Below, piece by piece: positions 1 through 49,440 of a DNA stretch of 64,000 bases. A program made the position numbers and the translations under genes. The notes under the pieces are model-generated. The model was not told where the DNA came from and did not search any database. It was given only the letters and a program-made list of their open reading frames with translations. Position 1 is the first letter of the stretch. Every line of letters begins with the position of its first letter. The DNA is taken from NCBI RefSeq assembly GCF_024223415.1, contig NZ_CP100500.1, one strand, 5' to 3'. The stretch comes from Escherichia coli. Lineage in GTDB: Bacteria > Pseudomonadota > Gammaproteobacteria > Enterobacterales > Enterobacteriaceae.

Positions 1-842
1 TGGACAGCCGCGCCGTGCATGATTTCTTTGCCAGCGAACGTATTGACCAGGTCTATCTGGCGGCGGCGAAAGTGGGCGGCATTGTTGCCAACAACACCTA
101 TCCGGCGGATTTCATCTATCAGAACATGATAATTGAGAGCAACATCATTCACGCCGCGCATCAGAACGACGTGAACAAACTGCTGTTTCTCGGATCGTCC
201 TGCATCTACCCGAAACTGGCAAAACAGCCGATGGCAGAAAGCGAGTTATTGCAGGGCACGCTGGAGCCGACCAACGAGCCTTACGCCATTGCCAAAATCG
301 CCGGGATCAAACTGTGCGAATCATACAACCGCCAGTACGGACGCGATTACCGCTCAGTCATGCCGACCAACCTGTATGGCCCGCATGACAACTTCCACCC
401 GAGTAATTCGCATGTGATCCCTGCATTGCTGCGTCGCTTCCACGAGGCGACGGCACAGAATGCACCGGACGTGGTGGTATGGGGCAGCGGTACACCGATG
501 CGTGAATTCCTGCACGTCGATGATATGGCGGCGGCGAGCATTCATGTCATGGAGCTGGCGCATGAAGTCTGGCTGGAGAACACCCAGCCGATGCTGTCGC
601 ACATTAACGTCGGCACGGGCGTTGACTGCACTATCCGCGAGCTGGCGCAAACCATCGCCAAAGTGGTGGGTTACAAAGGTCGGGTGGTTTTTGATGCCAG
701 CAAGCCGGATGGTACGCCGCGCAAACTGCTGGATGTGACGCGCCTGCATCAGCTTGGCTGGTATCACGAAATCTCACTGGAAGCGGGGCTTGCCAGCACT
801 TACCAGTGGTTCCTTGAGAATCAAGACCGCTTTCGGGGGTAA
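1..842 (+). CDS. fcl: GDP-L-fucose synthase, C-terminal part (5' end lies outside the window)
   Basis: ORF 15..842 is open to the window edge; translation recognised as the short-chain dehydrogenase/epimerase Fcl (WcaG); stop overlaps next start (TAATG). Confidence 0.9.
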
Positions 843-1324
843 TGATGTTTTTACGTCAGGAAGACTTTGCCACGGTAGTGCGCTCCACTCCGCTTGTCTC
901 TCTCGACTTTATAGTCGAGAACAGTCGCGGCGAGTTTCTGCTTGGCAAAAGAACCAACCGCCCGGCGCAGGGTTACTGGTTTGTGCCGGGAGGGCGCGTG
1001 CAGAAAGACGAAACGCTGGAAGCCGCATTTGAGCGGCTGACGATGGCGGAACTGGGGCTGCGTCTGCCGATAACAGCAGGCCAGTTTTACGGTGTCTGGC
1101 AGCACTTTTATGACGATAACTTCTCTGGCACGGATTTCACCACTCACTATGTGGTGCTCGGTTTTCGCTTCAGAGTAGCGGAAGAAGAACTGTTACTGCC
1201 GGATGAGCAGCATGACGATTACCGCTGGCTGACGCCGGACGCACTGCTCGCCAGTGACAATGTTCACGCTAACAGCCGCGCCTATTTTCTCGCTGAGAAG
1301 CGTGCCGGAGTACCCGGATTATGA
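842..1324 (+). CDS. gmm: GDP-mannose mannosyl hydrolase (Nudix)
   Basis: 160-aa ORF recognised as Gmm/WcaH; annotated start may be the second ATG (845). Confidence 0.9.
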
Positions 1325-2544
1325 AAATACTGGTCTACGGCATTAACTACTCGCCGGAGTTAACCGGCATCGGCAAATACACCGGCGAGATGGTGGAATG
1401 GCTGGCGGCACAAGGTCATGAGGTGCGGGTCATTACCGCACCGCCTTACTACCCGCAGTGGCAGGTGGGCGAGAACTATTCCGCCTGGCGCTACAAACGA
1501 GAAGAGGGGGCCGCCACGGTGTGGCGCTGCCCGCTGTATGTGCCAAAACAGCCGAGCACCCTGAAACGCCTGTTACATCTCGGCAGTTTTGCCGTCAGCA
1601 GTTTTTTCCCGTTGATGGCGCAACGTCGCTGGAAGCCGGATCGCATTATCGGCGTGGTGCCAACGCTGTTTTGCACGCCGGGAATGCGCCTGCTAGCGAA
1701 ACTCTCTGGCGCGTGTACCGTGCTGCATATTCAGGATTACGAAGTAGATGCCATGCTGGGGCTGGGCCTTGCCGGAAAAGGCAAAGGCGGCAAAGTGGCA
1801 CAGCTGGCAACGGCGTTCGAACGTAGCGGACTGCATAACGTCGATAACGTCTCCACGATTTCGCGTTCGATGATGAATAAAGCCATCGAAAAAGGCGTGG
1901 CGGCGGAAAGCGTCATCTTCTTCCCCAACTGGTCGGAAATCGCCCGTTTTCAGCATGTTGCAGACGCCGATGTTGATGCCCTTCGTAACCAGCTTGGCCT
2001 GCCGGATAACAAAAAAATCATTCTTTACTCCGGCAATATTGGTGAAAAGCAGGGACTGGAAAACGTTATTGAAGCTGCCGATCGCCTGCGCGATGAACCG
2101 CTGATTTTTGCCATTGTCGGGCAGGGCGGCGGCAAAGCGCGGCTGGAAAAAATGGCGCAGCAGCGTGGACTGCGCAACATGCAATTTTTCCCGCTGCAAT
2201 CGTATGACGCTTTACCCGCACTGCTGAAGATGGGCGATTGCCATCTGGTGGTGCAAAAACGCGGCGCGGCAGATGCCGTATTGCCGTCGAAACTGACCAA
2301 TATTCTGGCGGTAGGCGGTAACGCGGTGATTACCGCAGAAGCCCACACAGAACTGGGGCAGCTTTGCGAAACCTTTCCGGGCATTGCGGTTTGCGTAGAG
2401 CCGGAATCGGTCGAGGCGCTGGTGGCGGGGATTCGTCAGGCGCTCCTGCTGCCCAAACACAACACGGTGGCACGTGAATATGCCGAACGCACGCTCGATA
2501 AAGAGAACGTGTTACGTCAATTTATAAATGATATTCGGGGATAA
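1321..2544 (+). CDS. wcaI: colanic acid biosynthesis glycosyltransferase WcaI
   Basis: 407-aa ORF, GT-B-like glycosyltransferase at the conserved wca position; 4-nt overlap with gmm. Confidence 0.85.
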
Positions 2545-2546
2545 TT

Positions 2547-3983
2547 ATGGCGCAGTCGAAACTCTATCCAGTTGTGATGGCAGGTGGCTCCGGTAGCCGC
2601 TTATGGCCGCTTTCCCGCGTACTTTACCCCAAGCAGTTTTTATGCCTGAAAGGCGATCTCACCATGCTGCAAACCACCATCTGCCGCCTGAACGGCGTGG
2701 AGTGCGAAAGCCCGGTGGTGATTTGCAATGAGCAGCACCGCTTTATTGTCGCGGAACAGCTGCGTCAACTGAACAAACTCACCGAGAACATTATTCTCGA
2801 ACCTGCAGGGCGTAACACTGCACCGGCCATTGCGCTGGCGGCGCTGGCGGCAAAACGTCATAGCCCGGAGAACGACCCGTTAATGCTGGTGCTGGCGGCG
2901 GATCATGTAATTGCCGATGAAGACGCGTTCCGTGCCGCCGTGCGTAATGCCATGCCATATGCCGAAGCGGGCAAGCTGGTGACCTTTGGCATTGTGCCGG
3001 ATCTACCAGAAACCGGTTATGGCTATATTCGTCGCGGTGAAGTGTCTGCGGGTGAGCAGGATACGGTGGCCTTTGAAGTGGCGCAGTTTGTCGAAAAACC
3101 GAATCTGGAAACCGCGCAGGCCTATGTGGCAAGCGGCGAATATTACTGGAACAGCGGCATGTTCCTGTTCCGCGCCGGACGCTATCTCGAAGAACTGAAA
3201 AAATATCGCCCGGATATCCTCGATGCCTGCGAAAAAGCGATGAGCGCCGTCGATCCGGATCTCGATTTTATTCGCGTGGATGAAGAAGCGTTTCTCGCCT
3301 GCCCGGAAGAGTCGGTGGATTACGCGGTCATGGAACGTACGGCAGATGCCGTTGTGGTGCCGATGGATGCGGGCTGGAGCGATGTCGGTTCCTGGTCCTC
3401 TTTATGGGAGATCAGTGCCCACACCGCCGAGGGCAACGTTTGCCATGGCGATGTGATTAATCACAAAACTGAAAACAGCTATGTGTATGCCGAATCTGGC
3501 CTCGTAACCACCGTCGGGGTGAAAGATCTGGTAGTGGTGCAGACCAAAGATGCGGTGCTGATTGCCGACCGTAACGCGGTGCAGGATGTGAAAAAAGTGG
3601 TCGAGCAGATCAAAGCCGATGGTCGCCATGAGCATCGGGTACATCGCGAAGTCTATCGCCCGTGGGGCAAATATGACTCTATCGACGCGGGCGACCGCTA
3701 CCAGGTGAAACGCATCACCGTGAAACCGGGCGAAGGCTTGTCGGTACAGATGCACCATCACCGCGCGGAACACTGGGTGGTTGTCGCGGGAACGGCAAAA
3801 GTCACTATTGACGGTGATATCAAACTGCTTGGTGAAAACGAGTCGATTTATATTCCGCTGGGGGCGACGCACTGCCTGGAAAACCCGGGGAAAATTCCGC
3901 TCGATTTAATTGAAGTGCGCTCCGGCTCTTATCTCGAAGAGGATGATGTGGTGCGCTTCGCGGATCGCTACGGACGGGTGTAG
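2547..3983 (+). CDS. manC: mannose-1-phosphate guanylyltransferase
   Basis: 478-aa ORF with N-terminal nucleotidyltransferase signature ([13 protein letters not shown]) and C-terminal cupin region; cpsB position. Confidence 0.9.
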
Positions 3984-4084
3984 CAGTTGAATAATCAACC
4001 GGATTAATTCTCCGGTAAATAACGACAAAAACAAAATTGGCCATTTCGGTCAGGGCCAACTATTGCCTGAAAAAGGGTAACGAT

Positions 4085-5455
4085 ATGAAAAAATTAACCT
4101 GCTTTAAAGCCTATGATATTCGCGGAAAATTAGGCGAAGAACTGAATGAAGATATCGCCTGGCGCATTGGTCGCGCCTATGGCGAATTTCTCAAACCGAA
4201 AACCATTGTGTTAGGCGGTGATGTCCGCCTCACCAGCGAAACCTTAAAACTGGCGCTGGCGAAAGGTTTACAGGATGCGGGCGTCGATGTGCTGGATATC
4301 GGCATGTCCGGCACCGAAGAGATCTATTTCGCCACGTTCCATCTCGGCGTGGATGGCGGCATCGAAGTTACCGCCAGCCATAATCCGATGGATTATAACG
4401 GCATGAAACTGGTGCGCGAAGGGGCTCACCCGATCAGCGGTGATACCGGACTGCGCGACGTCCAGCGTCTGGCTGAAGCCAACGACTTTCCTCCCGTCGA
4501 TGAAACCAAACGCGGTCGCTATCAGCAAATCAACCTGCGTGATGCATACGTTGATCACCTTTTCGGTTATATCAATGTCAAAAACCTTACTCCGCTGAAG
4601 CTTGTGATCAACTCCGGAAACGGCGCAGCGGGTCCGGTAGTGGACGCCATTGAAGCTCGCTTTAAAGCCCTCGGCGCACCCGTGGAATTGATCAAAGTGC
4701 ACAACACGCCCGACGGGAATTTCCCCAACGGTATTCCTAACCCGCTGCTGCCAGAATGTCGCGACGACACCCGCAATGCGGTCATCAAACACGGCGCGGA
4801 TATGGGCATTGCCTTTGATGGCGATTTTGACCGCTGTTTCCTGTTTGACGAAAAAGGGCAGTTTATCGAGGGCTACTACATTGTCGGCCTGCTGGCAGAA
4901 GCGTTCCTCGAAAAAAATCCCGGCGCGAAGATCATCCACGATCCACGTCTCTCCTGGAACACCGTTGATGTGGTGACTGCCGCAGGCGGCACCCCGGTAA
5001 TGTCGAAAACCGGACACGCCTTTATTAAAGAACGTATGCGCAAGGAAGACGCCATCTACGGTGGCGAAATGAGCGCCCACCATTACTTCCGTGATTTCGC
5101 TTACTGCGACAGCGGCATGATCCCGTGGCTGCTGGTCGCTGAACTGGTGTGCCTGAAAGGGAAAACGCTGGGCGAACTGGTGCGCGACCGGATGGCAGCG
5201 TTTCCGGCAAGCGGTGAGATCAACAGCAAACTGGCGCACCCCGTTGAGGCGATTAACCGCGTCGAACAGCATTTTAGCCGTGAGGCGCTGGCGGTGGATC
5301 GCACCGATGGCATCAGCATGACCTTTGCCGACTGGCGCTTTAACCTGCGCTCCTCCAACACCGAACCGGTGGTGCGGTTGAATGTGGAATCGCGCGGCGA
5401 TGTACCGCTGATGGAAGCGCGAACGCGAACTCTGCTGACGTTGCTGAACGAGTAA
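4085..5455 (+). CDS. manB: phosphomannomutase
   Basis: ORF 4037..5455; likely start at [14 protein letters not shown] (4085); phosphohexomutase motif TASHNP present. Confidence 0.9.
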
Positions 5456-5509
5456 TGTCGGATCTTCCCTTACCCCACTGCGGGTAAGGGGCTAATAACA
5501 GGAACAACG

Positions 5510-6904
5510 ATGACAAATCTAAAAAAGCGCGAGCGAGCGAAAACCAATGCATCGTTAATCTCTATGGTGCAACGCTTTTCAGATATCACCATCATGTTTG
5601 CCGGACTATGGCTGGTTTGCGAAGTGAGCGGACTGTCATTCCTCTACATGCACCTGTTGGTGGCGCTGATTACGCTGGTGGTGTTCCAGATGCTGGGTGG
5701 CATCACCGATTTTTATCGCTCATGGCGCGGTGTTCGGACAGCGACAGAATTTGCCCTGTTGCTACAAAACTGGACGTTAAGCGTGATTTTCAGCGCCGGA
5801 CTGGTGGCGTTCAACAATGATTTCGACACGCAACTGAAAATCTGGCTGGCGTGGTATGGGCTGACCAGCATCGGACTGGTGGTTTGCCGTTCATGTATTC
5901 GCATTGGGGCGGGCTGGCTGCGTAATCATGGCTATAACAAGCGGATGGTCGCGGTGGCGGGGGATTTAGCCGCCGGACAAATGCTGATGGAGAGCTTCCG
6001 TAATCAGCCGTGGTTAGGGTTTGAAGTGGTGGGCGTATACCACGACCCAAAACCGGGCGGCGTTTCTAACGACTGGGCGGGCAATCTGCAACAGCTGGTA
6101 GAGGATGCAAAAGCGGGCAAGATTCATAACGTCTATATCGCGATGCAGATGTGCGACGGCGCGCGAGTGAAAAAACTGGTCCATCAACTGGCGGACACCA
6201 CCTGTTCGGTGCTGCTGATCCCCGATGTCTTTACCTTCAACATTCTCCATTCCCGTATCGAAGAGATGAACGGCGTACCGGTGGTGCCGCTTTACGACAC
6301 GCCGCTTTCCGGGGTTAACCGCCTGCTCAAACGTGCGGAAGATATTGTGCTGGCAACGCTGATCCTGCTGCTGATCTCCCCGGTGCTGTGCTGTATTGCG
6401 CTGGCGGTAAAACTCAGTTCACCAGGGCCGGTTATTTTTCGCCAGACTCGCTACGGCATGGATGGCAAGCCGATCAAAGTGTGGAAGTTCCGTTCGATGA
6501 AAGTGATGGAGAACGACAAAGTGGTGACCCAGGCGACGCAGAACGATCCGCGCGTCACCAAAGTGGGGAACTTTCTGCGCCGCACCTCGCTGGACGAATT
6601 GCCGCAGTTTATCAATGTGCTGACCGGGGGGATGTCGATTGTCGGTCCACGTCCGCACGCGGTGGCGCATAACGAACAGTATCGACAGCTCATTGAAGGC
6701 TACATGCTGCGCCATAAGGTGAAACCGGGCATTACCGGCTGGGCGCAGATTAACGGCTGGCGCGGCGAAACCGACACACTGGAGAAAATGGAAAAACGCG
6801 TCGAGTTCGACCTTGAGTACATCCGCGAATGGAGCGTCTGGTTCGATATCAAAATCGTTTTCCTGACGGTATTCAAGGGCTTCGTTAACAAAGCGGCATA
6901 TTGA
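5510..6904 (+). CDS. wcaJ: undecaprenyl-phosphate glucose phosphotransferase
   Basis: 464-aa ORF with N-terminal TM segments and C-terminal sugar-transferase domain (PRPHAV... region). Confidence 0.9.
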   Translation: MTNLKKRERAKTNASLISMVQRFSDITIMFAGLWLVCEVSGLSFLYMHLLVALITLVVFQMLGGITDFYRSWRGVRTATEFALLLQNWTLSVIFSAGLVAFNNDFDTQLKIWLAWYGLTSIGLVVCRSCIRIGAGWLRNHGYNKRMVAVAGDLAAGQMLMESFRNQPWLGFEVVGVYHDPKPGGVSNDWAGNLQQLVEDAKAGKIHNVYIAMQMCDGARVKKLVHQLADTTCSVLLIPDVFTFNILHSRIEEMNGVPVVPLYDTPLSGVNRLLKRAEDIVLATLILLLISPVLCCIALAVKLSSPGPVIFRQTRYGMDGKPIKVWKFRSMKVMENDKVVTQATQNDPRVTKVGNFLRRTSLDELPQFINVLTGGMSIVGPRPHAVAHNEQYRQLIEGYMLRHKVKPGITGWAQINGWRGETDTLEKMEKRVEFDLEYIREWSVWFDIKIVFLTVFKGFVNKAAY

Positions 6905-12358: not shown

Positions 12359-12532
12359 ATTTGCGACCATTCCTGGAAAAATGGATCCATACTTAGGAAC
12401 AATGCTACTGCAATCCACAACGAAGCGGCGTAACATCACAAGTAATTCAGTAATCAATTCAGGGTAATTGATGCTGGCGAAAAAAATCGAACAAGCTATA
12501 ATTCAGCAACCATTTTACAGGTGGATGAAATA

Positions 12533-13426
12533 ATGACGAATTTAAAAGCAGTTATTCCTGTAGCGGGTCTTGGGATGCATATGTTGCCTGCCACTAAGGC
12601 GATTCCCAAAGAGATGCTACCGATCGTCGACAAGCCTATGATTCAGTACATTGTTGACGAGATTGTGGCTGCAGGGATCAAAGAAATCCTCCTGGTAACT
12701 CATGCGTCCAAGAACGCGGTCGAAAACCACTTCGACACCTCTTATGAATTAGAATCTCTCCTTGAACAGCGCGTAAAGCGTCAATTGCTTGCGGAAGTGC
12801 AGTCCATCTGTCCACCGGGCGTGACCATTATGAACGTGCGTCAGGGCGAACCTTTAGGTTTGGGTCACTCCATTTTATGTGCACGACCCGCCATTGGTGA
12901 CAATCCATTTGTCGTGGTGCTGCCGGACGTTGTGATCGACGACGCCAGCGCCGACCCGCTGCGCTACAACCTTGCTGCCATGATTGCACGATTCAACGAA
13001 ACGGGTCGTAGCCAGGTGCTGGCAAAACGTATGCCGGGTGACCTCTCTGAATACTCGGTCATCCAGACCAAAGAACCACTGGACCGTGAAGGTAAAGTCA
13101 GCCGCATTGTTGAATTTATCGAAAAACCGGATCAGCCGCAGATGTTGGACTCAGACATCATGGCCGTTGGTCGTTATGTGCTTTCTGCCGATATTTGGCC
13201 GGAACTTGAACGCACGCAGCCAGGTGCATGGGGGCGTATTCAGCTGACTGATGCCATCGCTGAACTGGCGAAAACACAGTCCGTTGATGCCATGCTGATG
13301 ACAGGTGACAGCTACGACTGCGGTAAAAAAATGGGTTATATGCAGGCATTTGTGAAGTATGGACTACGCAACCTCAAAGAAGGGGCGAAGTTCCGTAAAG
13401 GGATTGAGAAGCTGTTAAGCGAATAA
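12533..13426 (+). CDS. galF: UTP-glucose-1-phosphate uridylyltransferase paralogue GalF
   Basis: ORF 12521..13426; start at [12 protein letters not shown] gives 297 aa; flanks the O-antigen locus as expected. Confidence 0.9.
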
Positions 13427-13699
13427 TGAAAATCTGACTGGATGTAACGGTTGATAAGAAAATTATAACGGTGGTGAAAATTCGCAGGAAAAGTAACTTG
13501 TTGCGAATATTCCTGCCGTTATTTGATATAAATAACCAGCATAACAACGAGTTAATATTAGGATTTTAGTCAAAGTTTCCTAGGATTTTTCTTGTTTCCA
13601 GAGCGGATTCGTAAGACAATTAGCGCCTTAGTTTTACGGGTTAGCGTGAGTGAGCCATGCTCGTTACATCGCAGGTGTGTATTCAGTGTTCTGGTAGCT

Positions 13700-13722
13700 G
13701 TAAAGCCAGGGGCGGTAGCGTA
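13700..13722 (+). promoter_or_regulatory. JUMPstart/ops element (GGCGGTAGCGT) for RfaH-dependent antitermination
   Basis: Exact ops core GGCGGTAGCGT in the about 1 kb AT-rich galF to O-antigen intergenic region; coordinates approximate. Confidence 0.6.
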
Positions 13723-14450
13723 CATATGAGGAAACATTTCAGCTGAAATAATTGAATATTCCAAAGCATGAGAGTTACTTAATTTGTAAAAGTGCTACAG
13801 TACAATAGAGAGGATCTCTGTCTTCATATTGTTTGCGATCATCTCAGATGAAGTTATTGATTTCATCTTTTAATAGAAGAACTGAATAGAATATGTATGG
13901 CATTATCATTTTGAACAATAATAATAGAATAAAAGGAAGACATCGAAATGGTGGTCAAACATTACATCAGTTCTATTGATTTGACAGCAGAGAAGTCTGC
14001 CACAGCGAACCAAAATTACTGACTCGTAGAGAAGAAGTTGCACTGGCTGCTGAATGGTAATGGATGAAGACGACAGAGAAATAAGAAAAGAAAACTCAGC
14101 AGAATTACCTTCAGGGATATAGCGCATCACTATTTATGTATTGACTAAAGATAAAGCATTTAAGAAAGGTTAAGGTGTAAGGTGTGAAAAGCAGCCATGG
14201 GTAAGGTTCGTTTCGCACAGGCGTTACTTACAGTAGATGGTCGGCACATCGTAAGACTTGGTCTGATTGCCAGATCATATGTGAGACATCAGAAAAAATT
14301 TAAGCAAATATATAAACAGTAGGTGATGTTGTTAAAGTATAAAACAGATATGGTAGTCAAATAAAGCAAAGTATCGTTGGAAAAATATCTGTAAAATCCC
14401 TGGTGCGTTCACGTGAGTTAGAGTAAAAGTAATGAGGAGGTTCTATTTTT

Positions 14451-15551
14451 ATGAGTTTTGAAAATTGGTATATAAAAGATATTGAACCATATAAACTGGC
14501 TAGTCATAAAGTATGGGACGATGTTTGCAACCGAGATATATTAAAATTAGATTGGAATGAAGCAACTATTCCTGCTAGTCCGTATGTAAAGAAAAGAATT
14601 TTAGAAACTATTGATAAAATAGAGTTTAGATATTACCCAAACGTAAACAACATGGAGTTGTTAACAGCTATCGCGGGATATACTCAACTCAACATAGAAA
14701 ATATTCAATATTTTCCAAGTTCTGATGCTGCACATGAATATATAGCATCAGTATTCTTAACATCAGAAGATAGAGTGTTAATATTGTCCCCGACATATGA
14801 TAATTTCAGGCTAACCTGTCAAAGTAGAGGGGCGGAAATATCGTATGTTAATTGTTTTGATGGGGCGTTTCAATTCCAGAGTGAATTATTTATAAATGTT
14901 TTGAAAGAAACAAAGCCTAAAATTGCATATATGTGTAACCCTAACAATCCGACGGGTTCAATAATAAGGCGGGAATATATAAAGAAAATATTAACTCTTT
15001 TTCCTGATATCTTGTTTGTTTTAGATGAGGCTTATATTGAATTTTCATCTGGTTCATGTGGTGATTTTGTTAAGGAATATGATAATTTGATAGTATCAAG
15101 AACCTTCTCGAAGGCATTTGCGCTGGCCAATTTTAGGATTGGTTATATATTGGCTTCACCTAAACTTATAGTTTCAATTAATAAAATAAGAAATTCTAAG
15201 AATGTAACGACATTATCACAAGAGGCTGCAGTTGCTGCATTGCATGATTCTCAATATATGCAAGCTTATGTTAATGAGGTGATTGTAGCGCGACAATACT
15301 TTATTGAAGAGATAAATAGAAGGTTTGGAGATAAGCTGATAGCATATGAAAGTCATGGTAATTTTGTTCTTGTAAAATGCTCCTCGGAAATACTAAAAAA
15401 AACATTAATAAAAGGCCTGGAGGAACAAGATATTTTCATAAGAGATTTGTCACACAAGGAGCTCAATGGTTTACATATAAGGATTACTATTGGAACACGG
15501 ACTCAAATGAGGCAGGTGCTTAATGTTATTGAAAATATTATTGGTCAATAA
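14451..15551 (+). CDS. PLP-dependent aminotransferase (HisC-like class I/II)
   Basis: 366-aa ORF with histidinol-phosphate-aminotransferase-like features; first gene of the AT-rich O-antigen cluster. Confidence 0.75.
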   Translation: MSFENWYIKDIEPYKLASHKVWDDVCNRDILKLDWNEATIPASPYVKKRILETIDKIEFRYYPNVNNMELLTAIAGYTQLNIENIQYFPSSDAAHEYIASVFLTSEDRVLILSPTYDNFRLTCQSRGAEISYVNCFDGAFQFQSELFINVLKETKPKIAYMCNPNNPTGSIIRREYIKKILTLFPDILFVLDEAYIEFSSGSCGDFVKEYDNLIVSRTFSKAFALANFRIGYILASPKLIVSINKIRNSKNVTTLSQEAAVAALHDSQYMQAYVNEVIVARQYFIEEINRRFGDKLIAYESHGNFVLVKCSSEILKKTLIKGLEEQDIFIRDLSHKELNGLHIRITIGTRTQMRQVLNVIENIIGQ

Positions 15552-15587
15552 TATGTTTGCAGGCGCTCTTTATTATGTTGGTCAGCG

Positions 15588-16277
15588 ATGAAATATAAAT
15601 ACGCTTTTTTTGATTTTTGTGAAACGTTGGTGGATTTACAAACTGCTGATGATTACATTTCTGATGTGATTATTAAGAAGGAAGGCCGATGGAGTTATAA
15701 GCTTGCGATTATTGGCTTCTTAAGGAATAGATGGGTTAATAAATTATTTAATAAATTGTTTAACAATTATGATAACCCTAAGTCTTTGATTTTGAAGCTG
15801 GTTAAAGGGTTTGACTATGGGGTCTTTTCTGTTGCTGCAGAAGAATATTGTAAAAAACTAATGGAGTATTACTTAATTGATGATGTTATTTCGGAGATGC
15901 TAGAATTAAAAAAAAAGAATTATCAAATAATCATTGTCTCTGGGGGATATGATATATATATAAAGCATTTTTTTTCCTCAGTTGTAGATAAGGTTATAGC
16001 TACCGAGATTGATTTTTCTGATTCTAAGTGTCTGGGGAAAATATCAGGTATTGATTGTTTAGGTGTGAACAAGTTAAACAAAATAAAGAAATATATTGAT
16101 GTCAACACAATAGATTATGAAAATTCCTACGTCTTTTCTGACAGTAAAACAGATTTGCCTCTTTTTTCGTTAGCAAAGAATAAAATTGTCATATCTAAGA
16201 AAAAAAACAAATCGTGGGTTAATGAGCAAAATGAAGAATTTATTGAAAAAGTATGGTGTCCTAAAAAAATATGCTAA
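15588..16277 (+). CDS. HAD-family hydrolase/phosphatase
   Basis: 229-aa ORF with N-terminal HAD motif I (FFDFCETLVD) and size typical of HAD phosphatases. Confidence 0.6.
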   Translation: MKYKYAFFDFCETLVDLQTADDYISDVIIKKEGRWSYKLAIIGFLRNRWVNKLFNKLFNNYDNPKSLILKLVKGFDYGVFSVAAEEYCKKLMEYYLIDDVISEMLELKKKNYQIIIVSGGYDIYIKHFFSSVVDKVIATEIDFSDSKCLGKISGIDCLGVNKLNKIKKYIDVNTIDYENSYVFSDSKTDLPLFSLAKNKIVISKKKNKSWVNEQNEEFIEKVWCPKKIC

Positions 16278-17145
16278 GAAGTATTATTACTATACTTCTT
16301 CTTTTTTAATGTCAGATGAATTATATATAAAAAGGAAGTTTAAGAAAATTTTCGGATATGCTTTGGATATCAATAATCCAAAAACAATGAATGAAAAGAT
16401 GCAATGGATGAAGTTACATATGCATCCTCAGGAATATAATATTTTTGCAGATAAACTTCTTGTTAGAAAATACGTGGAAGAAAAGATTGGTAAAAATATA
16501 CTAATACCTATTTTTGCAGTATACGAAAGTGAAGCCGAATTAAATATAGATTCTTTGCCTGACGAACCATTTATCATTAAGACGAATCATGATAGTTCTG
16601 GTGGAATAATCGTGAGAAACAAATCAGAACTCAATATAAAGGATGCAAAAAGTTTTTGTCGATTTAATTTGAATAACAATCATTATTATATATCAAGAGA
16701 GAAACATTATAAACATTTAGACAGAAAAATTATTATAGAGAAGCTCCTTCTTACAAAATCCGGAAAAATCCCAAATGATTATAAAATAAATTGTATAAAT
16801 GGGCGTGCTGAATTTATATATTGCTCTATTGATAGAGAGGGGAAAAATTACCGAAAGATTTATGACAGGTCTTGGTGTGAAATGGATTTTAAATGGGGAA
16901 ATAAAGATGAGTTTGAGCATAAATTTACTGGGCCCAATATTGAAAAGCCTGATAATTTAGATAAAATGATTGAGTATGCGGAGATATTATCAATGGGGTT
17001 TCCTTATCTAAGAATAGATTTATACAATGTTGATGGGGAAATATATTTAGGAGAAATAACTATTTATCATGGGGGAGGGTTTGATGTTATTGAGCCAAAA
17101 GAATATGACTTATTTTTTGGTAATAAGATTCATTTAGAAAAATGA
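16222..17145 (+). CDS. TupA-like ATP-grasp protein (putative amidoligase)
   Basis: ORF 16186..17145 overlaps the previous gene; start probably at an internal Met (16222 or 16231); resembles the TupA-like ATP-grasp family found in polysaccharide clusters. Confidence 0.6.
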   Translation: MSKMKNLLKKYGVLKKYAKKYYYYTSSFLMSDELYIKRKFKKIFGYALDINNPKTMNEKMQWMKLHMHPQEYNIFADKLLVRKYVEEKIGKNILIPIFAVYESEAELNIDSLPDEPFIIKTNHDSSGGIIVRNKSELNIKDAKSFCRFNLNNNHYYISREKHYKHLDRKIIIEKLLLTKSGKIPNDYKINCINGRAEFIYCSIDREGKNYRKIYDRSWCEMDFKWGNKDEFEHKFTGPNIEKPDNLDKMIEYAEILSMGFPYLRIDLYNVDGEIYLGEITIYHGGGFDVIEPKEYDLFFGNKIHLEK

Positions 17146-18362
17146 AAAATATTATAAAGAATGGGCTGTCTCTTTCTTTTATAAAGGCAGTGACTTTGCT
17201 ATTTCCTATCGCCATTGTACCTATCCTGATATCAAAGATAGGAATGGATAAATATGGGGAAGTTGTATTTATCACTGCAATATATTCATATTTTATTAAT
17301 GTGGTTAGCTTTGGATTTGAAGAATCAGCCACTCAAGTCTTGGCAAAGAATCACTTCTCAGGTTTGTCGAAAAATGAATATATTTTGTCTGTTATCGTGC
17401 TCAAGGGCATAATTGCTGTTTCTATAATTTTTGTCATTTGTGGTTTGTATTTTTTGGGGATGGGAGGAGATTTTTTCTCATTGCTATTTTGTATTACCAT
17501 CGTCGCTGAGGTTTTTAATCCCTTATGGTTTTATCAGGGGGTCGAAAGAATTCATATTATCTCAGTGAGCTCTATAGTATCAAAATCATTATATACAATA
17601 TTAATATGTCTGTTTGTGAGATGTAATAATGATTATTACCTTGTTCCTGTATTTTTAGGCGGTGCGAATATTCTTTCTTATGTCTATCCGTTTGTTGCTA
17701 TGTGTAATGAGTGTAAATTTCGGCGCAATGACTTGAACTATAATAATTTGAAAAAAGTATTATTAGACTCAGTTAGTATATTCCTTACTAATTTTATCCC
17801 AACATTGAAAGATAAGATAGGTGCTATATTGATAGGTTTATCTTTCTCCATGAATATCGTAGCGATTTATGATATAATTATAAAAATACTTAATTTATTG
17901 TTTATTCCAGTAAATGTAATAAATGCATCGTTCTATCCAACACTTTCCAGGAAGAGAGAAAAGAAAATATTAATGCAATTAATGTATATAAATTTGGGTT
18001 ATGCTATTTTTGCATTTGTTATCGTATGTAATTTTTTTGATTATTTTTCCAATATCTACTTCCAATCCTATTCAGCGTATTCCGATGCTGTAAAAATAAT
18101 ATCTGTGTCTGTTGTTTTTTACTCAGTGAGTTTAATGATTGGAAAAAATATCCTATTGGTCACTGGTTTTTATCATCATGTGCTGCTCAGTATTATATTA
18201 TCGACAGGATTTTATTTGATGTTTGTCTGCTTTATGTATTCTCTTAGTTCATTGAGTATATATTCATTATGCTTTTTAACAACAGCATCATTCTTATTTG
18301 AAATGCTGGTTAGGTTAATTATGTTAAAGAAGACTAAGGCCTTGTTTTTTTTTAAATATTAA
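17142..18362 (+). CDS. wzx: O-antigen flippase
   Basis: 406-aa, very hydrophobic, about 12 predicted TM segments, AT-rich; 4-nt overlap with the upstream gene. Confidence 0.7.
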   Translation: MKNIIKNGLSLSFIKAVTLLFPIAIVPILISKIGMDKYGEVVFITAIYSYFINVVSFGFEESATQVLAKNHFSGLSKNEYILSVIVLKGIIAVSIIFVICGLYFLGMGGDFFSLLFCITIVAEVFNPLWFYQGVERIHIISVSSIVSKSLYTILICLFVRCNNDYYLVPVFLGGANILSYVYPFVAMCNECKFRRNDLNYNNLKKVLLDSVSIFLTNFIPTLKDKIGAILIGLSFSMNIVAIYDIIIKILNLLFIPVNVINASFYPTLSRKREKKILMQLMYINLGYAIFAFVIVCNFFDYFSNIYFQSYSAYSDAVKIISVSVVFYSVSLMIGKNILLVTGFYHHVLLSIILSTGFYLMFVCFMYSLSSLSIYSLCFLTTASFLFEMLVRLIMLKKTKALFFFKY

Positions 18363-18376
18363 TTAGGTATGGAAGT

Positions 18377-19246
18377 ATGAAAACAGTGTCAGTAATCATT
18401 CCAACATATAGGGATTGGGAAAGATTATCTAAATGTTTAAATGCAATAAAAAAACAAAGATATCCCGCAGAGTTTATTCAGGTAATAGTCATTAATAATG
18501 ATCCATTTGATGATAATCCATTTATAAATAGTGATGAATATAAAAATGTAAAGTTTTTAGTAGAGGGAAAGGTGGGTTCTTATGCAGCAAGAAATAAAGG
18601 CCTAAATTATGCAAAAGGGGAGATTATAGCATTCACTGATTCAGATTGTGTCCCAGATGAGTTTTGGATTTCAAATGCTGTTCGACATTTTGAAGAAAAT
18701 AGTAAATGCACAAGAATTGGTGGGAAAATTGAATTATTTTTCAAAGGTAATGTAAGTAAAACCCTAGCTGAATTTTATGAACAAAGTTATGCTTTCCGGC
18801 AGAAAGAGTTTGTTCAACGACAGGGAATGGCTGCAACAGCTAATATGTTCTCATATAAGAAGGTTTTTGATGATATATCATATTTCAATGATTCATTGAT
18901 GTCGGGAGGAGATGCCGAATGGGGAGTTAGGGCAAATAATAAAGGATATAGAATAGACTATTGTGATTCTGTCACTGTTTATCATCCGGCAAGAGAATCG
19001 ATGAAACAAATTTTTATAAAAAATCGAAGGGAAGCCAGTGGTAAAATAAAAAATAAACGAAAAGTGTTAATCAATTTTGTAATGTCATTGCTCCCACCAT
19101 TAAAATCGTTGATGTATATTAGGTATCATGGGAATAGTATATATAAAGTATTAATTGCATTTTTTATTAGATATTTAATGAGGATTGATACGGCTATAGA
19201 ACAAATCCGGGTTGTGTTTTTTAATAAGAAAGCCGAGCGATTATGA
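18377..19246 (+). CDS. glycosyltransferase family 2
   Basis: N-terminal GT2 signature (VSVIIPTYRDWERLSKCLNAI) and DxD (TDSDC). Confidence 0.75.
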   Translation: MKTVSVIIPTYRDWERLSKCLNAIKKQRYPAEFIQVIVINNDPFDDNPFINSDEYKNVKFLVEGKVGSYAARNKGLNYAKGEIIAFTDSDCVPDEFWISNAVRHFEENSKCTRIGGKIELFFKGNVSKTLAEFYEQSYAFRQKEFVQRQGMAATANMFSYKKVFDDISYFNDSLMSGGDAEWGVRANNKGYRIDYCDSVTVYHPARESMKQIFIKNRREASGKIKNKRKVLINFVMSLLPPLKSLMYIRYHGNSIYKVLIAFFIRYLMRIDTAIEQIRVVFFNKKAERL

Positions 19247-20487
19247 AAATGTTTTTTTTTGTTCTTTGCGTGTTCTTTTTAATAAATGGCTTTTATATAT
19301 ATCCGCCATTTAATAGTGCAATTTTAGCACCGATGTTAGCTTTATTGGGAGCACTAACATTAAGGAAGAAAATAACGATAAAGCCCTTTTCTGACTTGTT
19401 AGATCCTTCATTTTTATTTTGGTTTCTTTTTGTAAGTTGTTATTGTCTATCAATTGCAGTTTTCTCAAAAACATATGACTTATCATATGTAAAGAACTTT
19501 ATATCACAACTTGTTCAATTTGCTATTATTTTATTTAGTTTTTTTATGTTATCATCAATAGATGGAGCATTTTCTCTTAAGATAGAAAAAATTATCGTAT
19601 ATAGCTTCGTTTTACAATCTGTTATTCAGATAGCAGCATTTCTATATCCTGGAATAGCCGATATTATTCATTTATTTTATGATAAAGATAAAGTAGAGCG
19701 ATTATACATCAATTACGCAGGAGTAAGAGGACTGGCGTTGACTGGTTCCCCAGGGTGGGGAATATCTGTTGGATATGCTATATCATTTTTACTTTTTGTT
19801 AAAGCATTTGTTATTAATCAGAAATTGAAGTTTTCTAGTATTATAGTTGCAATACTACTTTTAATCGGTGCAATGTTTACTGGTCGCAGTGCTTTTATTG
19901 GTGTTATTTTCGGTGGGGGGTATTATCTTGTATCAGGAGAGGATATTACAAAAAAAATCAAAACTATAATTCTATTTTTAATTCTTCCTGCATTAATATG
20001 CATGTTAACATATATAATGTTGCCATCCCTATCCTCACTATTCGGAGATAAGGTTTTCCCATTTGTCTTTGAGTTCTATTATAAATACAAAGACACAGGT
20101 GAGTTATCTACTAAATCTACAGATATTTTGTTGAATATGTGGGATCTTAACGTTGATGTTACTGACATTGTGTTCGGTACAGGTAATTTCACAAATGACA
20201 AAACTGGAGAGTATTATTTCGGTAGTGATGTGGGATATCTCCGGAATTTATTGTATGGTGGTTTTTTTTGGATGTTCACTCTTTTTATTTATCAGGTTTC
20301 ATTATTTGGACAACTGCGTTGGTGGAAAAAAAGAAAGGATATTAAATTATTTGTATTCATTTTTATAGCCATGTTAATGTTGCTTGAGATGAAAGCAATG
20401 GCCATAGGATATAATAAATATGTGTTTACAGTTTCTATTTTATTAGGATTGTCATTTAAAGAGAGATACAGAAATGCTTACCAATAA
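19243..20487 (+). CDS. wzy: O-antigen polymerase
   Basis: 414-aa polytopic membrane protein with a large loop, extremely AT-rich; typical Wzy profile. Confidence 0.6.
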   Translation: MKMFFFVLCVFFLINGFYIYPPFNSAILAPMLALLGALTLRKKITIKPFSDLLDPSFLFWFLFVSCYCLSIAVFSKTYDLSYVKNFISQLVQFAIILFSFFMLSSIDGAFSLKIEKIIVYSFVLQSVIQIAAFLYPGIADIIHLFYDKDKVERLYINYAGVRGLALTGSPGWGISVGYAISFLLFVKAFVINQKLKFSSIIVAILLLIGAMFTGRSAFIGVIFGGGYYLVSGEDITKKIKTIILFLILPALICMLTYIMLPSLSSLFGDKVFPFVFEFYYKYKDTGELSTKSTDILLNMWDLNVDVTDIVFGTGNFTNDKTGEYYFGSDVGYLRNLLYGGFFWMFTLFIYQVSLFGQLRWWKKRKDIKLFVFIFIAMLMLLEMKAMAIGYNKYVFTVSILLGLSFKERYRNAYQ

Positions 20488-21385
20488 AGTCTCTGTTGTT
20501 ATTCCGACACATAGTCGGCCTAATCTTTTGCGAAAAGCTATAGAAAGTGTTTTGAATCAGACATATAAGCCATGTGAAATTATTGTTGTTGATGATACAG
20601 AATCTGAAGAAACCGCTCGATGTTTATCTGTCATAAATAGCGATATACCTATTAGGCTAAAGTATAACACTTCTTCTGGTGCCGGCTCGTCTAGGAATTT
20701 AGGTGCAAAGATTGCTAATGGTGATTTTGTGGCTTTCTTGGATGACGATGATCTCTGGCTTCCAACTAAATTAGAAACGCAGATGTATGAATTGCGGCAT
20801 ACACAATATGATGCAATTTTTTGTCAGATGATAATAAATTATGAAGGGGTAAACATACAATATTCTACTCGAGCCAAAAATGTAGCTGAACCATTAAAAG
20901 AAATATGTATTGAAAACTTTATTGGTGCCACAATATCCTGTGTTATACGCCGTTCAATTTTTATGAAATTAGGAGGGTTTGATGAAAGATTCAAGGCTAG
21001 AGAGGAATATGATTTATGGATTCGAGTTATTCAATCTAATGCTAAAATTAAAATAATAGAAAAACCATTAACTATTTCAAATCGTTCTTTTGTACGGAAT
21101 CGTATTTCTTCTAACATAAATAATTATGAGCACGGAATATCACTTATTAACGAAAAATATGCTCGATTGATTACTGAAATATTAACTCCCAATGAGAGAA
21201 GAATAAGATTATCGAAACAATATGAATTTCTAGCTGCTCAGGCAATATCTTTAGGCCTTAAAATGACAAGCTCAAAGTATTATTTTAAGTCTTTTTTAAC
21301 AATTCCTTCTCTTAAATCGTTATTTCTTTCATTGTTGAGTATTATTTCTCCGCTAATGATAATAAAAATTAGAAGCAAACTTTAA
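20474..21385 (+). CDS. glycosyltransferase family 2
   Basis: N-terminal GT2 signature (VSVVIPTHSRPNLLRKAIESV) and DDDD motif. Confidence 0.75.
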   Translation: MLTNKVSVVIPTHSRPNLLRKAIESVLNQTYKPCEIIVVDDTESEETARCLSVINSDIPIRLKYNTSSGAGSSRNLGAKIANGDFVAFLDDDDLWLPTKLETQMYELRHTQYDAIFCQMIINYEGVNIQYSTRAKNVAEPLKEICIENFIGATISCVIRRSIFMKLGGFDERFKAREEYDLWIRVIQSNAKIKIIEKPLTISNRSFVRNRISSNINNYEHGISLINEKYARLITEILTPNERRIRLSKQYEFLAAQAISLGLKMTSSKYYFKSFLTIPSLKSLFLSLLSIISPLMIIKIRSKL

Positions 21386-25105: not shown

Positions 25106-25349
25106 TCTGATTTAAATCAATTAATCGATGCAAGGCCCGGAGAAATCCTTCGGGTTTTTTATTATACAAAGTGGCAGGTTATGGCTTTTTTATAATTTAT
25201 GGTTAAAAAGCGATATAATACATAGACGCACAGCAGGATTACTGCCTTGACAGTTCATCCGCATCAGCGTTAAAAATCCCGCAGTAGATGAAGATGTGTT
25301 GGTAGATTAATGACCACTCTAAATGTTTAACCGGAAGAAGTCAGAGCTA

Positions 25350-26516
25350 ATGAAAATAACAATTTCAGGAACAGGTTATGTTGGTCTTTCAAATGGTATT
25401 CTGATTGCGCAAAACCACGAAGTGGTTGCACTGGATATCGTTCAGGCCAAAGTGGACATGCTTAACAAGAAGCAGTCACCGATTGTTGATAAGGAGATTG
25501 AAGAGTATCTGGCGACTAAAGATCTCAATTTCCGCGCTACGACAGATAAGTATGACGCGTATAAAAATGCCGATTACGTTATTATTGCCACGCCTACCGA
25601 TTATGATCCGAAAACGAATTATTTTAATACCTCAAGCGTGGAAACGGTCATTCGCGATGTGACAGAAATTAATCCCAGCGCGGTAATGATTATAAAATCA
25701 ACTATCCCTGTTGGTTTTACAGAGTCTATTAAAGAACGGTTTGGTATTGAAAATGTGATTTTTTCGCCGGAGTTTTTACGCGAAGGGAAAGCACTTTATG
25801 ATAACTTGCATCCATCACGCATAGTGATTGGCGAGCAATCTGACCGCGCAGAACGTTTTGCAGCGTTATTACAGGAAGGCGCTATTAAGCAAGACATACC
25901 AATATTGTTTACTGACTCAACCGAGGCTGAGGCGATTAAACTTTTTGCCAATACTTATCTGGCGATGCGTGTGGCTTATTTTAATGAACTAGATACTTAC
26001 GCTGAAAGTCTGGGTCTTAACTCCCGCCAAATTATTGAGGGAGTTTGCCTTGATCCGCGTATCGGTAATCACTACAATAATCCGTCATTTGGTTATGGTG
26101 GTTATTGTCTGCCGAAAGATACTAAGCAGTTACTGGCAAACTATCAGTCAGTACCGAATAACTTGATCTCAGCAATTGTCGATGCCAATCGCACGCGAAA
26201 AGATTTTATTGCCGATTCTATCCTTGCACGTAAACCGAAAGTTGTTGGCGTCTATCGTCTGATTATGAAGAGTGGTTCGGACAATTTCCGTGCTTCCTCA
26301 ATTCAGGGTATTATGAAGCGAATCAAGGCGAAAGGCGTGCCTGTAATCGTTTATGAGCCAGCTATGAAAGAGGACAATTTTTTCAGGTCGCGCGTGGTAC
26401 GTGATCTGGATGCGTTCAAGCAAGAAGCTGATGTTATTATTTCTAACCGTATGTCTGCCGATCTGGCTGATGTAGCAGATAAGGTTTATACGCGCGACTT
26501 GTTTGGCAATGATTAA
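25350..26516 (+). CDS. ugd: UDP-glucose 6-dehydrogenase
   Basis: ORF 25323..26516; start at [16 protein letters not shown] gives 388 aa. Confidence 0.9.
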
Positions 26517-26581: not shown

Positions 26582-27586
26582 TCAAACTTTATAGAAGTTA
26601 CGATACCATTCTACAAAGTTCTTTACCCCCTCTTTAACTGACGTTTCAGGTTTGAATCCTATTACGTCATACAGTGCTTTGGTATCAGCACTGGTTTCCA
26701 GTACATCACCGGGTTGGAGAGGCATCATATTTTTGTTGGCTTCAATACCCAGAGCCTCTTCTAACGCATTGATATAGTCCATCAACTCTACAGGCGAACT
26801 ATTACCAATGTTATAGACACGATATGGTGCTGAACTTGTTGCAGGCGAGCCTGTTTCTACAGCCCACTGTGGATCTTTTTCTGGAATAACATCCTGTAAG
26901 CGAATAATAGCTTCGGCAATATCATCAATATAAGTAAAGTCACGCTTCATTTTGCCGAAGTTGTAAACATCAATGCTTTTACCTTCCAACATGGCTTTAG
27001 TAAATTTAAATAATGCCATATCCGGACGTCCCCATGGACCATAAACCGTAAAGAAACGCAGTCCTGTGGTCGGTAAGCCATACAAATGAGAATATGTATG
27101 GGCCATGAGTTCATTCGCTTTTTTAGTTGCTGCATAAAGTGAAACAGGATGATCTACAGAGTCATCTGTAGAGAAAGGCATCATGCGGTTCATACCATAA
27201 ACAGAACTGGAGGAAGCGTAAAGTAGATGCTGAACATTATTATGGCGGCATCCTTCCAGTATGTTCAGGAATCCAATCAGGTTTGCATCTGCATATGCAT
27301 TGGGATTTTCAAGGGAGTAACGTACACCGGCTTGCGCAGCGAGGTTTATTACGCGATCGAACCGCTCCTCTGCAAACAGTGCTGCCATTTTCTCACGATC
27401 GGCCAGGTCAATTTTATAAAAACTGAAATTGTCGTGCTTGAGTAAATCAAGTCGTGCTTGTTTGAGGTTGACATCGTAATAATCATTTAAGTTGTCAATG
27501 CCTACAACCTGATGACCAGCTGCAAGAAGCCGTTTACTTACATAGAAACCGATAAAGCCAGCAGCTCCCGTAACCAGAAATTTCAT
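26582..27586 (-). CDS. gla: NAD-dependent epimerase, UDP-glucuronate 4-epimerase-like
   Basis: 334-aa ORF with Rossmann motif ([12 protein letters not shown]) and YxxxK; sits between ugd and wzzB on the opposite strand. Confidence 0.75.
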
Positions 27587-36102: not shown

Positions 36103-36149
36103 TTTCTTATTCCTCTTTAAACCTGTCTGAACCGTTATCAATCGCGCAA

Positions 36150-36190
36150 TAAAAAAGCCCCCGGAAGGTGATCTTCCGGGGGCTTTCTCA
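36150..36190 (-). terminator. his attenuator terminator hairpin
   Basis: On the minus strand, GCCCCCGGAAG-loop-CTTCCGGGGGC followed by a T-run, between hisL and hisG; coordinates approximate. Confidence 0.7.
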
Positions 36191-36247
36191 TGCGTTCATG
36201 CACCACTGGAAGATCTGAATGTCTTCCAGCACACATCGCCTGAAAGA

Positions 36248-36298
36248 CTAGTCAGGATGATGGTGATGATGGTGGTGTTTAAATTGAACGCGTGTCAT
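36248..36298 (-). CDS. hisL: his operon leader peptide
   Basis: Minus-strand mini-ORF translating to MTRVQFKHHHHHHHPD* (seven consecutive His codons), too short for the ORF track; coordinates approximate. Confidence 0.85.
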   Translation of the reverse strand: MTRVQFKHHHHHHHPD

Positions 36299-38965: not shown

Positions 38966-39231
38966 AGAAAAATTATTATGGCAAGCCTCTCATTCTCTTG
39001 TCATTTCCCCCCCATTTAGGCACAATGCGCCGCTGTCAAAAAATGACTAAAAACCGACGTTTCATCAGCGTCGGTTATTTTTTGCTTCAAACCAATCATT
39101 CATACCAAGAGGCCGGGCTTCGTACCGGATAGATATTTACTAAAAATCGACAGTTGTTGTCGCTGAGGAATCCAAAAAAATGGGGCAATTTTTTGCTTAC
39201 GCGACGGTTATCACCGTAAAGGAGAATGACC

Positions 39232-48061: not shown

Positions 48062-48256
48062 TTACAGCAACTGGTGAGGGCTGGCATAAGTTGCCGGTGT
48101 TTCGGTAGAGTCACGGTCATCCACCACGCGGAGTGAATAACCTTTTTCAGCGGCCTTATTAATCAGTTCAGTGATATTAACACCATCAATGTCAACGGCA
48201 ATGTGCCCCATATCCAGCGCCTGTACGTTAACGCTGTCGGCTTCCAGTGTCATCAT
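48062..48256 (-). CDS. yeeW: prophage protein YeeW
   Basis: 64-aa ORF recognised as YeeW; start overlaps the cbtA stop. Confidence 0.7.
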   Translation of the reverse strand: MMTLEADSVNVQALDMGHIAVDIDGVNITELINKAAEKGYSLRVVDDRDSTETPATYASPHQLL

Positions 48257-48626
48257 TTCGCCTCCGGATACTTACCCAGGGTAATGTTATTTACCGTTCT
48301 GTAATTGTCGCGGGTCATCAGGCCGGTCGCCCTGCGAGCCCGGAGGATATCGATGCTGTTTATTAACTGAGAGCGGGTACAGGCGCTGAATCCCGGCTGG
48401 TCGGTAGCACCAGCGCGTATTTTTCCACGAGAAAGTTCACCGCATCACACAGTGAAATGCCTGCCTCAATATGCTGCTCAATCACACGTTCATCGGCAAA
48501 AGGTGTGTCATTCAGTGTGAGGCCATAGTGCTGGTCCAGCAGTCGGGACAGCAGTATCTGCCAGATTTCAACAGGAGACGGGCGAGAACTGGTCGCCTGC
48601 CCGGGTAATACAGGTAATGTTTTCAT
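48253..48626 (-). pseudogene. cbtA: frameshifted type IV toxin cbtA (yeeV)
   Basis: ORF 48363..48626 matches CbtA through …[10 protein letters not shown] and then diverges; the expected C-terminus ([40 protein letters not shown]) reads in another frame. Confidence 0.7.
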
Positions 48627-48714
48627 ACTGAAGATTTTCCTGATATGCAGATATAAAAATGGAAAAGTGGCGTGGTGAAAACACCAGGCCGTAGCAGAAG
48701 GCTATTCTGGAGAG

Positions 48715-49083
48715 TTAATTTTTCATTTCGGGCGTCGGATAAACAGCCAGATAAACGTAACCACAACTGCTGAGGGTATCGGCTTTGCAGGTCAGCCCTT
48801 TTGCATACAGCGTGACGGTATGCTGATGGCGGGGATTCAGTTCACCGCTGGTGAGCATGAGTTCCAGTTGTTTCATCAGCAGCGGAAAGGCCTGGTCCAG
48901 GTGGTACGCATCTGCATCGCTGAACAGGCCTCTGATACCGGCGCGGTCGGCAAGGTAATGCAACCGGTTACCCTCCTGCACCAGACGTGCCCCGAAACAG
49001 GGCGTCACGGTGCAGGGCAGCCCCCACCAGGGGCGGTCGTGATTGTCGTCGGGAAGTGTTGTCCCGGGGAGTGTGTCTGACAC
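48715..49083 (-). CDS. cbeA: antitoxin CbeA (YeeU)
   Basis: 122-aa ORF recognised as YeeU/CbeA. Confidence 0.85.
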   Translation of the reverse strand: MSDTLPGTTLPDDNHDRPWWGLPCTVTPCFGARLVQEGNRLHYLADRAGIRGLFSDADAYHLDQAFPLLMKQLELMLTSGELNPRHQHTVTLYAKGLTCKADTLSSCGYVYLAVYPTPEMKN

Positions 49084-49156
49084 GATAAAATCCTTACAGA
49101 AAATCGGCTAAGAATGGTCCGGTAGTGGCGATAATTCTGCTCATCAGAATTCCCAC

Positions 49157-49378: not shown

Positions 49379-49440
49379 AATGGGATACCTCTGAAGACAG
49401 AAGATAAAAGTGAAAACAGGTGTGATGTGGTTGTGAAGGG

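Follow-up and report, generated by a model that had tools for sequence, protein, structure and literature searches.

The question at this Escherichia coli locus is why the spacer separating galF from the O-antigen cluster is as long as it is, and whether the additional DNA is a leftover of O-antigen genes, a contributor to their expression, or debris of another kind. The window analyzed here, a stretch of 64,000 nucleotides, contains colanic-acid (wca) genes, galF, an O-antigen cluster, gnd, ugd, wzzB, and the his operon. Within it, the galF open reading frame (ORF) ends at 13426 and the next gene starts at 14451, leaving a spacer of exactly 1024 bp (13427..14450). The explanation in which we place high confidence is a standard RfaH-dependent O-antigen leader made about 0.6 kb longer by a decayed, nonfunctional ISAs1-family scar that is read through, with RfaH dependence, read-through, and neutrality of the scar all predicted from sequence.

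Layout of the leader and its JUMPstart element

The features discussed below are as follows, in window coordinates.

12521..13426 (+): galF, from the ORF list and from the annotated locus of strain Combat11I9 (99.9% identical)
13427..13683 (+): conserved 5' segment of the leader, preceding JUMPstart; presumed O-antigen promoter and start of the 5' untranslated region (UTR)
13684..13722 (+): JUMPstart (Rfam RF01707), stem-loop CUGGU / GCCAG followed by ops
13711..13722 (+): ops 12-mer GGCGGTAGCGTA, with the 11-nt core exact and A at position 12
13728..14203 (+): decayed, 5'-truncated ISAs1-family (H-repeat / ISEc1-like) remnant, from DNA and protein homology
14204..14265 (+): probable decayed 3' end of the insertion sequence (IS), from position fit and marginal similarity
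14266..14342 (no strand assigned): 77-nt segment with no match among the sequences searched
14343..14450 (+): probable native promoter-proximal leader of the first gene, from a weak collinear alignment with the Edwardsiella tarda leader
14451..15551 (+): first O-antigen gene, a HisC-like pyridoxal phosphate (PLP) aminotransferase, at the start of the low-GC cluster

The RefSeq version of galF is 894 nt, which would place its start at 12533 (13426 − 893). Two complete genomes, those of strains Combat11I9 and 181.1, share the spacer at 99.9% identity, and RefSeq annotates no feature in the 1-kb spacer of either one.

A first-pass annotation of this DNA had described an unusually long, AT-rich intergenic region of about 1 kb, followed by a sharp drop in GC consistent with horizontal acquisition of the cluster. 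Each part of that description is supported. Among 15 E. coli loci, a small sample, nine IS-free leaders were 293, 315, 318, 371, 371, 372, 372, 554, and 788 bp long, while all sampled leaders of at least 1 kb carried ISAs1 sequence: the 1024-bp leader of the window and six others of 1008 (both L024 and L025), 1664, 1725, 1752, and 2153 bp. Subtracting the 538-nt remnant from the window's leader leaves 486 bp, inside the ordinary range. In a computed profile, GC was 0.50-0.54 over galF, 0.36 over the leader, and 0.27-0.35 between 14.25 and 23.5 kb, returning to ~0.49 in gnd, as expected of a foreign low-GC cluster. Ahead of the rise in galF, GC also dipped to ~0.43 between 11500 and 12500, over the 3' end of wcaM and the spacer that separates it from galF.

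The two ends of the leader differ in how widely they are distributed. Of 5426 complete E. coli genomes, 2829 have a match to the sequence from 13427 to ~13727, for the most part with 80-90% identity, and this level of identity to most E. coli suggests that the flank from galF to JUMPstart may have traveled with the cluster. Beyond ~13727, megablast matches were confined to two genomes of the same type among the same 5426. The O-antigen promoter is presumed to lie within 13427..13683; a promoter consensus scan of the leader returned matches at chance level (5 found, compared to 4.5 ± 2.4 expected).

JUMPstart scored 56.6 bits against a gathering threshold of 35 (E = 1.2e-11), aligned over model positions 1 to 38 of 38, and was found again in a scan of the whole window. 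The cmscan alignment keeps the 5-bp stem (CUGGU...GCCAG) intact with every pair standard. Full-length, with an exact ops core, and situated between galF and the O-antigen genes, the element is a member of RF01707 on every feature of the family that can be tested. Together, RF01707 and ops mark the site at which RfaH is recruited to enterobacterial operons for polysaccharides, hemolysin, and the F pilus.

The ops core, GGCGGTAGCGT, occurs as a single exact copy at 13711..13721 on the plus strand, 2 nt from the position (~13709..13719) given in the first-pass annotation. Over 12 nt, the coding (non-template) strand matches the consensus GGCGGTAGCGTG at 11 positions; the commoner base at position 12 is G, and the A variant was also present in two other sampled leaders (O174-type and L010-type). 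The 11-mer alone is weak evidence, with 2 matches compared to 0.83 expected at one mismatch, and chance occurrence is ruled out by the covariance-model match together with the shared leader context. This context was the check proposed in the first-pass annotation, which would have given up its ops call had other leaders lacked it: the 39-nt JUMPstart lies in identical surroundings in 11 other E. coli galF leaders, and its flanks are also matched in E. tarda. Across the window and these 11 leaders, the leader types diverge no more than about 5 nt past ops.

Three other Rfam matches in the window exceeded their gathering thresholds, all expected at their loci: an algC RNA motif upstream of cpsG (4031..4080, +), the His operon leader (36149..36272, −), and the small RNA (sRNA) STnc240 (39011..39085, +). 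A CRISPR-DR63 match at 14867..14905, inside the aminotransferase gene, was dismissed as chance (25 bits compared to a threshold of 37, E = 0.7). Elsewhere in the window, small ORFs at 48062..49917 (−) resemble CP4-44-type prophage remnant genes (CbtA/CbeA-like toxin-antitoxin and RadC-like YeeS); we recognized this likeness from the translations and take it to be ordinary E. coli content.

The ISAs1-family remnant

Most of the additional length is insertion sequence DNA. Beginning 5 nt past JUMPstart, 13728..~14203 corresponds collinearly to positions 763..1234 of ISEc1 in operon orientation, with 76.8-77% DNA identity over 478 nt (E = 1e-97), and represents the 3' 40% of an ISAs1-family element. 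The ISEc1 copy used as reference (L002 1726..3016) is 1291 bp long and ends in CAGGGAAAGA and TCTTGCCCTG. At the protein level, tblastn recovered transposase residues ~198-353 of 378, spread over three frames with multiple stops (E = 8e-26). The stitched translation matched the NCBIfam model for ISAs1 transposases, NF033564, over profile positions 228-313 of 314 (E = 3e-11); its 43 bits fall under the 70-bit cutoff, as expected of a decayed fragment.

The fragment lacks the left 762 nt of ISEc1, and with them the left inverted repeat and the N-terminal 60% of the transposase; its right end can scarcely be recognized. In ISEc1 that end falls 57 nt past the last aligned base, a distance that matches 14250..14265 in the window, where the putative right end reads CGTAAGACTTGGTCTG compared to CGTAATCTTGCCCTG in ISEc1. 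Aligned globally to the corresponding part of ISEc1, the tail at 14204..14265 scored −3, compared to −10.4 ± 4.0 for shuffles, of which 99 of 2000 did as well (marginal, P ~0.05). The remnant thus probably extends to ~14265. With no intact frame, no left end, and a marginal right end, the feature is labeled a dead remnant rather than an IS element.

The pattern of decay was roughly even across codon positions. Of 100 mismatches to ISEc1, 40, 26, and 34 fell at positions 1, 2, and 3, respectively, accompanied by 6 indel events, and GC-to-AT substitutions outnumbered AT-to-GC substitutions 57 to 24. The even spread of mismatches, along with the AT bias, argues that divergence accrued without coding selection.

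A sensitive search with 13723..14450 found ISAs1-family transposase genes in 5246 of 5426 genomes, and no relative closer than 77.6% identity was found in these E. coli genomes or in 72,556 plasmids. Neither blastn nor tblastn revealed a second ISAs1 copy or remnant anywhere in the 64-kb window, including the gnd end of the cluster. The exact protein encoded by the first O-antigen gene is listed in 353 blocks of a public assembly index, and the leader was compared in the six loci returned. In all six independent assemblies it was 1023-1024 bp long with 0-3 single-nucleotide polymorphisms (SNPs), indicating that the scar is fixed in this O-antigen type.

The Edwardsiella tarda counterpart and the rest of the leader

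The O-antigen cluster encodes, in order, an aminotransferase, a HAD phosphatase, a TupA-like ATP-grasp protein, Wzx, a glycosyltransferase, Wzy, a second glycosyltransferase, a protein without an assigned role, and a third glycosyltransferase. The first three genes (14451..17145) specify a HisC-like aminotransferase, a HAD-IB phosphatase, and a TupA-like ATP-grasp ligase; the ugd region (25323..26516) is nearby, followed by a divergent NAD-dependent epimerase gene (26582..27586, −). This gene set would be compatible with a uronic acid to which an amino compound is joined by an amide bond. No serogroup-specific NCBIfam model matched wzx or wzy, and the literature likewise offered nothing specific on the O type.

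Outside E. coli, the nearest relative of the first gene is in E. tarda, at 67% amino acid identity. The E. tarda cluster (GCA_048082445.1) is collinear, its genes agreeing in order and almost exactly in length, and window positions 14447..21295 align to E. tarda L021 5997..12862 at 71.7% DNA identity over 6.9 kb. The E. tarda cluster adjoins dcuC. Its GC content of ~30% is shared with the E. coli cluster, while the flanking DNA and the E. tarda genome are at 59%, which points to an ultimate donor that was neither species. The same first five genes were also seen in Photobacterium damselae (L022), downstream of wzc and a wecA-like gene.

What sets the two loci apart is the leader. Strong homology begins at 14447, just 4 nt short of the start codon. 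In E. tarda, only 110 nt separate JUMPstart (52.3 bits) from the ATG of the same first gene. The bases directly after ops, (C)ATATGA, are common to both, and neither blastn nor tblastn detected ISAs1 sequence in the E. tarda locus. With JUMPstart this close to the gene and no IS between them in E. tarda, the E. coli leader is best seen as carrying an insertion of ~0.6 kb. At the distal end, 14343..14442 aligned to the 110-nt E. tarda leader with a local score of 16, compared to 11.5 ± 2.0 for shuffles, of which 41 of 1000 did as well (marginal, P ~0.04). On the simplest reading, the E. coli leader would be an E. tarda-like leader plus a ~614-nt insertion (13729..14342) comprising the IS fragment and the 77-nt segment. 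We infer from this one close outgroup that the change was probably an insertion in E. coli rather than a loss in E. tarda.

Two further loci with related genes were compared. In strain 181.1 (L017, CP059907), HAD, ATP-grasp, and wzx are called as split ORFs (4138..6635), which suggests either sequencing-error frameshifts or real inactivation; the cluster is otherwise near-identical, differing from the window at 22 places beyond 14450. E. coli D10 (L004) has a homologous aminotransferase, HAD, and ATP-grasp triad, whose first gene product shares 44% amino acid identity with that of the window. Its 788-bp leader (2501..3288) lacks ISAs1 sequence, leaving its extra length unaccounted for by an IS, and homology to the window's leader was rejected in that the two have only JUMPstart and CATAT in common.

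The first-pass annotation had suggested that the length beyond JUMPstart could hold a remnant of earlier cluster content. This did not hold for 13728..14203, where the DNA is that of an ISAs1-family transposase, and two thirds of the extra sequence is accounted for in this way. Sequence from 14204 to 14450 was matched in two genomes of the same serotype only, among 5426 E. coli genomes, and had no match among 72,556 plasmids, so that a decayed fragment of an earlier O-antigen gene is conceivable for 14266..14342. Set against this, distant BLAST searches of the same genomes and plasmids returned IS matches only, and the last ~100 nt show the marginal alignment to the ortholog's own leader in E. 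tarda. We regard derivation of the extra sequence from former O-antigen genes as extremely improbable.

The extra sequence could instead have been put to use, as an internal promoter, a small ORF, an sRNA, or a 5' UTR structure tuning O-antigen expression. Candidates for each kind of signal can be picked out: a promoter-like site matching at 10 of 12 positions on the minus strand (14335..14307), an ORF of 41 amino acids at 14197..14322 with AAGGTG 11 nt upstream of its start, and a 6-codon ORF from 13725. The near-invariance of the leader across six assemblies would also fit a function, though the flanking genes are equally invariant. None of the candidates stands out from background. Promoter-like sites occur at the chance frequency noted above, the plus-strand frames of 13723..14450 contain 15-22 stops each with a longest open stretch of 44 codons, and no credible ORF was found in the extra sequence. 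No structured RNA family other than JUMPstart was found in the leader by cmscan of the leader and of the whole window, and folding of the extra sequence was no better than that of shuffles (z-scores of +0.65 and −1.0). The substitution pattern of the remnant is neutral, and the E. tarda ortholog does without the segment. Co-option of the extra sequence is therefore very unlikely, and a scar without function is the reading carried forward.

ISAs1 elements beside JUMPstart and expression across the scar

At least 5 other cluster types also have ISAs1/ISEc1 copies 7-355 nt past JUMPstart, every one of them oriented with the operon. The clusters are O167-family, O173-family / strain SE11, and those of strains 19KM1863, 602687, and Z1323CEC0003, and the copies lie at the following positions.

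L009 2035..3313: ISAs1/ISEc1 copy
L026 2561..3844: ISAs1/ISEc1 copy
L024 and L025 2558..3194: ISAs1/ISEc1 copy
L007 2109..3399: ISAs1/ISEc1 copy
L023 2905..4170: ISAs1/ISEc1 copy

These copies are variously intact, frameshifted, or internally deleted. They share IS family, orientation, and leader with the window remnant, but they keep the left end and 89-98% identity to ISEc1, whereas the window copy has lost the left end and retains 77%. L009 and L026 have an identical JUMPstart-IS junction, with the 10-nt spacer GGGGAATTCT, and different clusters downstream. At a minimum query coverage of 80%, the L009-type junction (query L009:1975-2175) was found in 145 of 5426 genomes, a count to which divergent O167-type junctions and split matches of the SE11 type contribute and which may overlap the 53 of 5426 genomes with the L007-type junction. 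The junction in the window is confined to its own O type (2 of 5426 complete genomes). No target-site duplications were evident around the intact copies in L007 and L009.

Given ~5 ISAs1 places per genome and a target of ~400 bp, a rough estimate that ignores shared ancestry puts this frequency far above random placement. The excess could reflect an insertion hot spot, or survivorship at a place where insertions are harmless. A second observation is the 10-mer CCAGGGGCGG, which JUMPstart (13706..13715) has in common with the ISAs1 transposase gene (ISEc1 738..747; L002 2463..2472). The remnant starts 15 nt past the IS copy of this 10-mer and 12 nt past the JUMPstart copy, nearly in register; the match may be accidental or may serve as a recombination anchor. 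A deletion between the two copies was rejected as the origin of the truncation, since it would yield GGCGGCTAAAT and destroy ops, which is intact. A broader proposal is that the first few hundred bases after JUMPstart are an ISAs1/H-repeat hot spot, entered in operon orientation only, with CCAGGGGCGG as the anchor, that H-repeats serve as portable homology through which strains swap clusters, and that the window copy is a product of this process and not the scar of a random insertion. We consider this quite improbable.

Precedents exist for IS sequences in such loci. In Vibrio cholerae, IS1358 may adjoin a JUMPstart; no paper naming both was found in the open-access literature. An ISAs1 transposase gene lies inside a novel enteropathogenic E. 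coli (EPEC) O-antigen cluster (PMC9705854). In Salmonella enterica groups D2 and D3, an H-repeat remnant is present at an O-antigen cluster junction, between two cluster halves, and was proposed to have mediated recombination between D1 and E (PMC3715488). The window resembles the Salmonella case in having a decayed H-repeat within an O-antigen locus at a boundary of differing ancestry; it differs in that the fragment lies in the untranslated leader beside JUMPstart, with no recombinant parentage evident.

This comparison raises the possibility that the fragment is a footprint of the arrival of the cluster between galF and gnd, with an H-repeat at the 5' edge having mediated or marked the joint beside JUMPstart. 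The remnant abuts the point, ~5 nt past ops, at which all E. coli leader types diverge, and lies 15 nt from a 10-mer common to JUMPstart and the IS. Such remnants are documented at O-antigen recombination junctions, with the model proposed for Salmonella group D2 (PMC3715488), and ISAs1 occupies the corresponding place in the other cluster types described above, one junction being shared by two clusters. Against a footprint, the bases after ops (CATATGA) recur in E. tarda and in the D10-type leader, and the distal leader aligns weakly with that of E. tarda, giving the look of a clean insertion; the window has no second copy or remnant; and recombination by deletion between the 10-mers is at odds with the intact ops. 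We judge the footprint unlikely, if still deserving some weight. That an E. tarda-like leader seems to have been split cleanly favors a simple insertion, probably followed by loss of the left part of the IS.

The effect of such a scar depends on how the leader would be transcribed. RNA polymerase pauses at ops, where RfaH binds the exposed non-template strand, displaces NusG, prevents Rho-dependent termination, and aids translation of long horizontally acquired operons (PMC7819879). From the ops element, RfaH-dependent expression of the downstream genes is predicted here, in agreement with the first-pass annotation. The distance from ops to the first start codon is 729 nt, compared to ~19 nt (O174 type) and ~76 nt (rfbB type) from the end of the ops 11-mer and 110 nt from the end of JUMPstart in E. 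tarda. Coupling of ribosomes by RfaH could not begin before these 729 nt had been transcribed, which speaks against our preferred explanation. RfaH-controlled genes are typically without a Shine-Dalgarno sequence (PMC7819879), in contrast to the first O-antigen gene, which has a strong one (GAGGAGG, 14434..14440), a second point that we count against it.

On that explanation, transcription would pass from the conserved promoter-bearing segment through the JUMPstart hairpin to ops, where the polymerase would pause and RfaH would load onto the non-template strand. Loaded RfaH would exclude NusG, block Rho-dependent termination, and promote transcription of the long, AT-rich foreign operon. The modified polymerase would then cross 729 nt of untranslated RNA, including the truncated ISAs1-family segment, inserted in operon orientation and apparently decayed neutrally into noncoding DNA, before reaching the first start codon. 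A search of the extra sequence revealed no terminator-like hairpin. C makes up 13% of the leader RNA and G 22%, and C exceeds G in just 18 of 650 78-nt windows, which should make this RNA a poor Rho substrate. The scar may have been tolerated because it lacks an intrinsic terminator, is C-poor, and lies downstream of ops, where the polymerase would already be RfaH-modified.

Neither JUMPstart/ops leaders nor H-repeat scars within O-antigen loci are new, and the arrangement is an ordinary one. It matters little beyond annotation, in that the spacer can be labeled as JUMPstart plus an ISAs1 pseudogene fragment. The E. tarda counterpart lets the insert be dated against the cluster and indicates that both hosts acquired the ~30% GC cluster from elsewhere. 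With RfaH carrying RNA polymerase over ~730 nt of untranslated junk, the leader would be a natural example of ops-dependent tolerance of an insertion.
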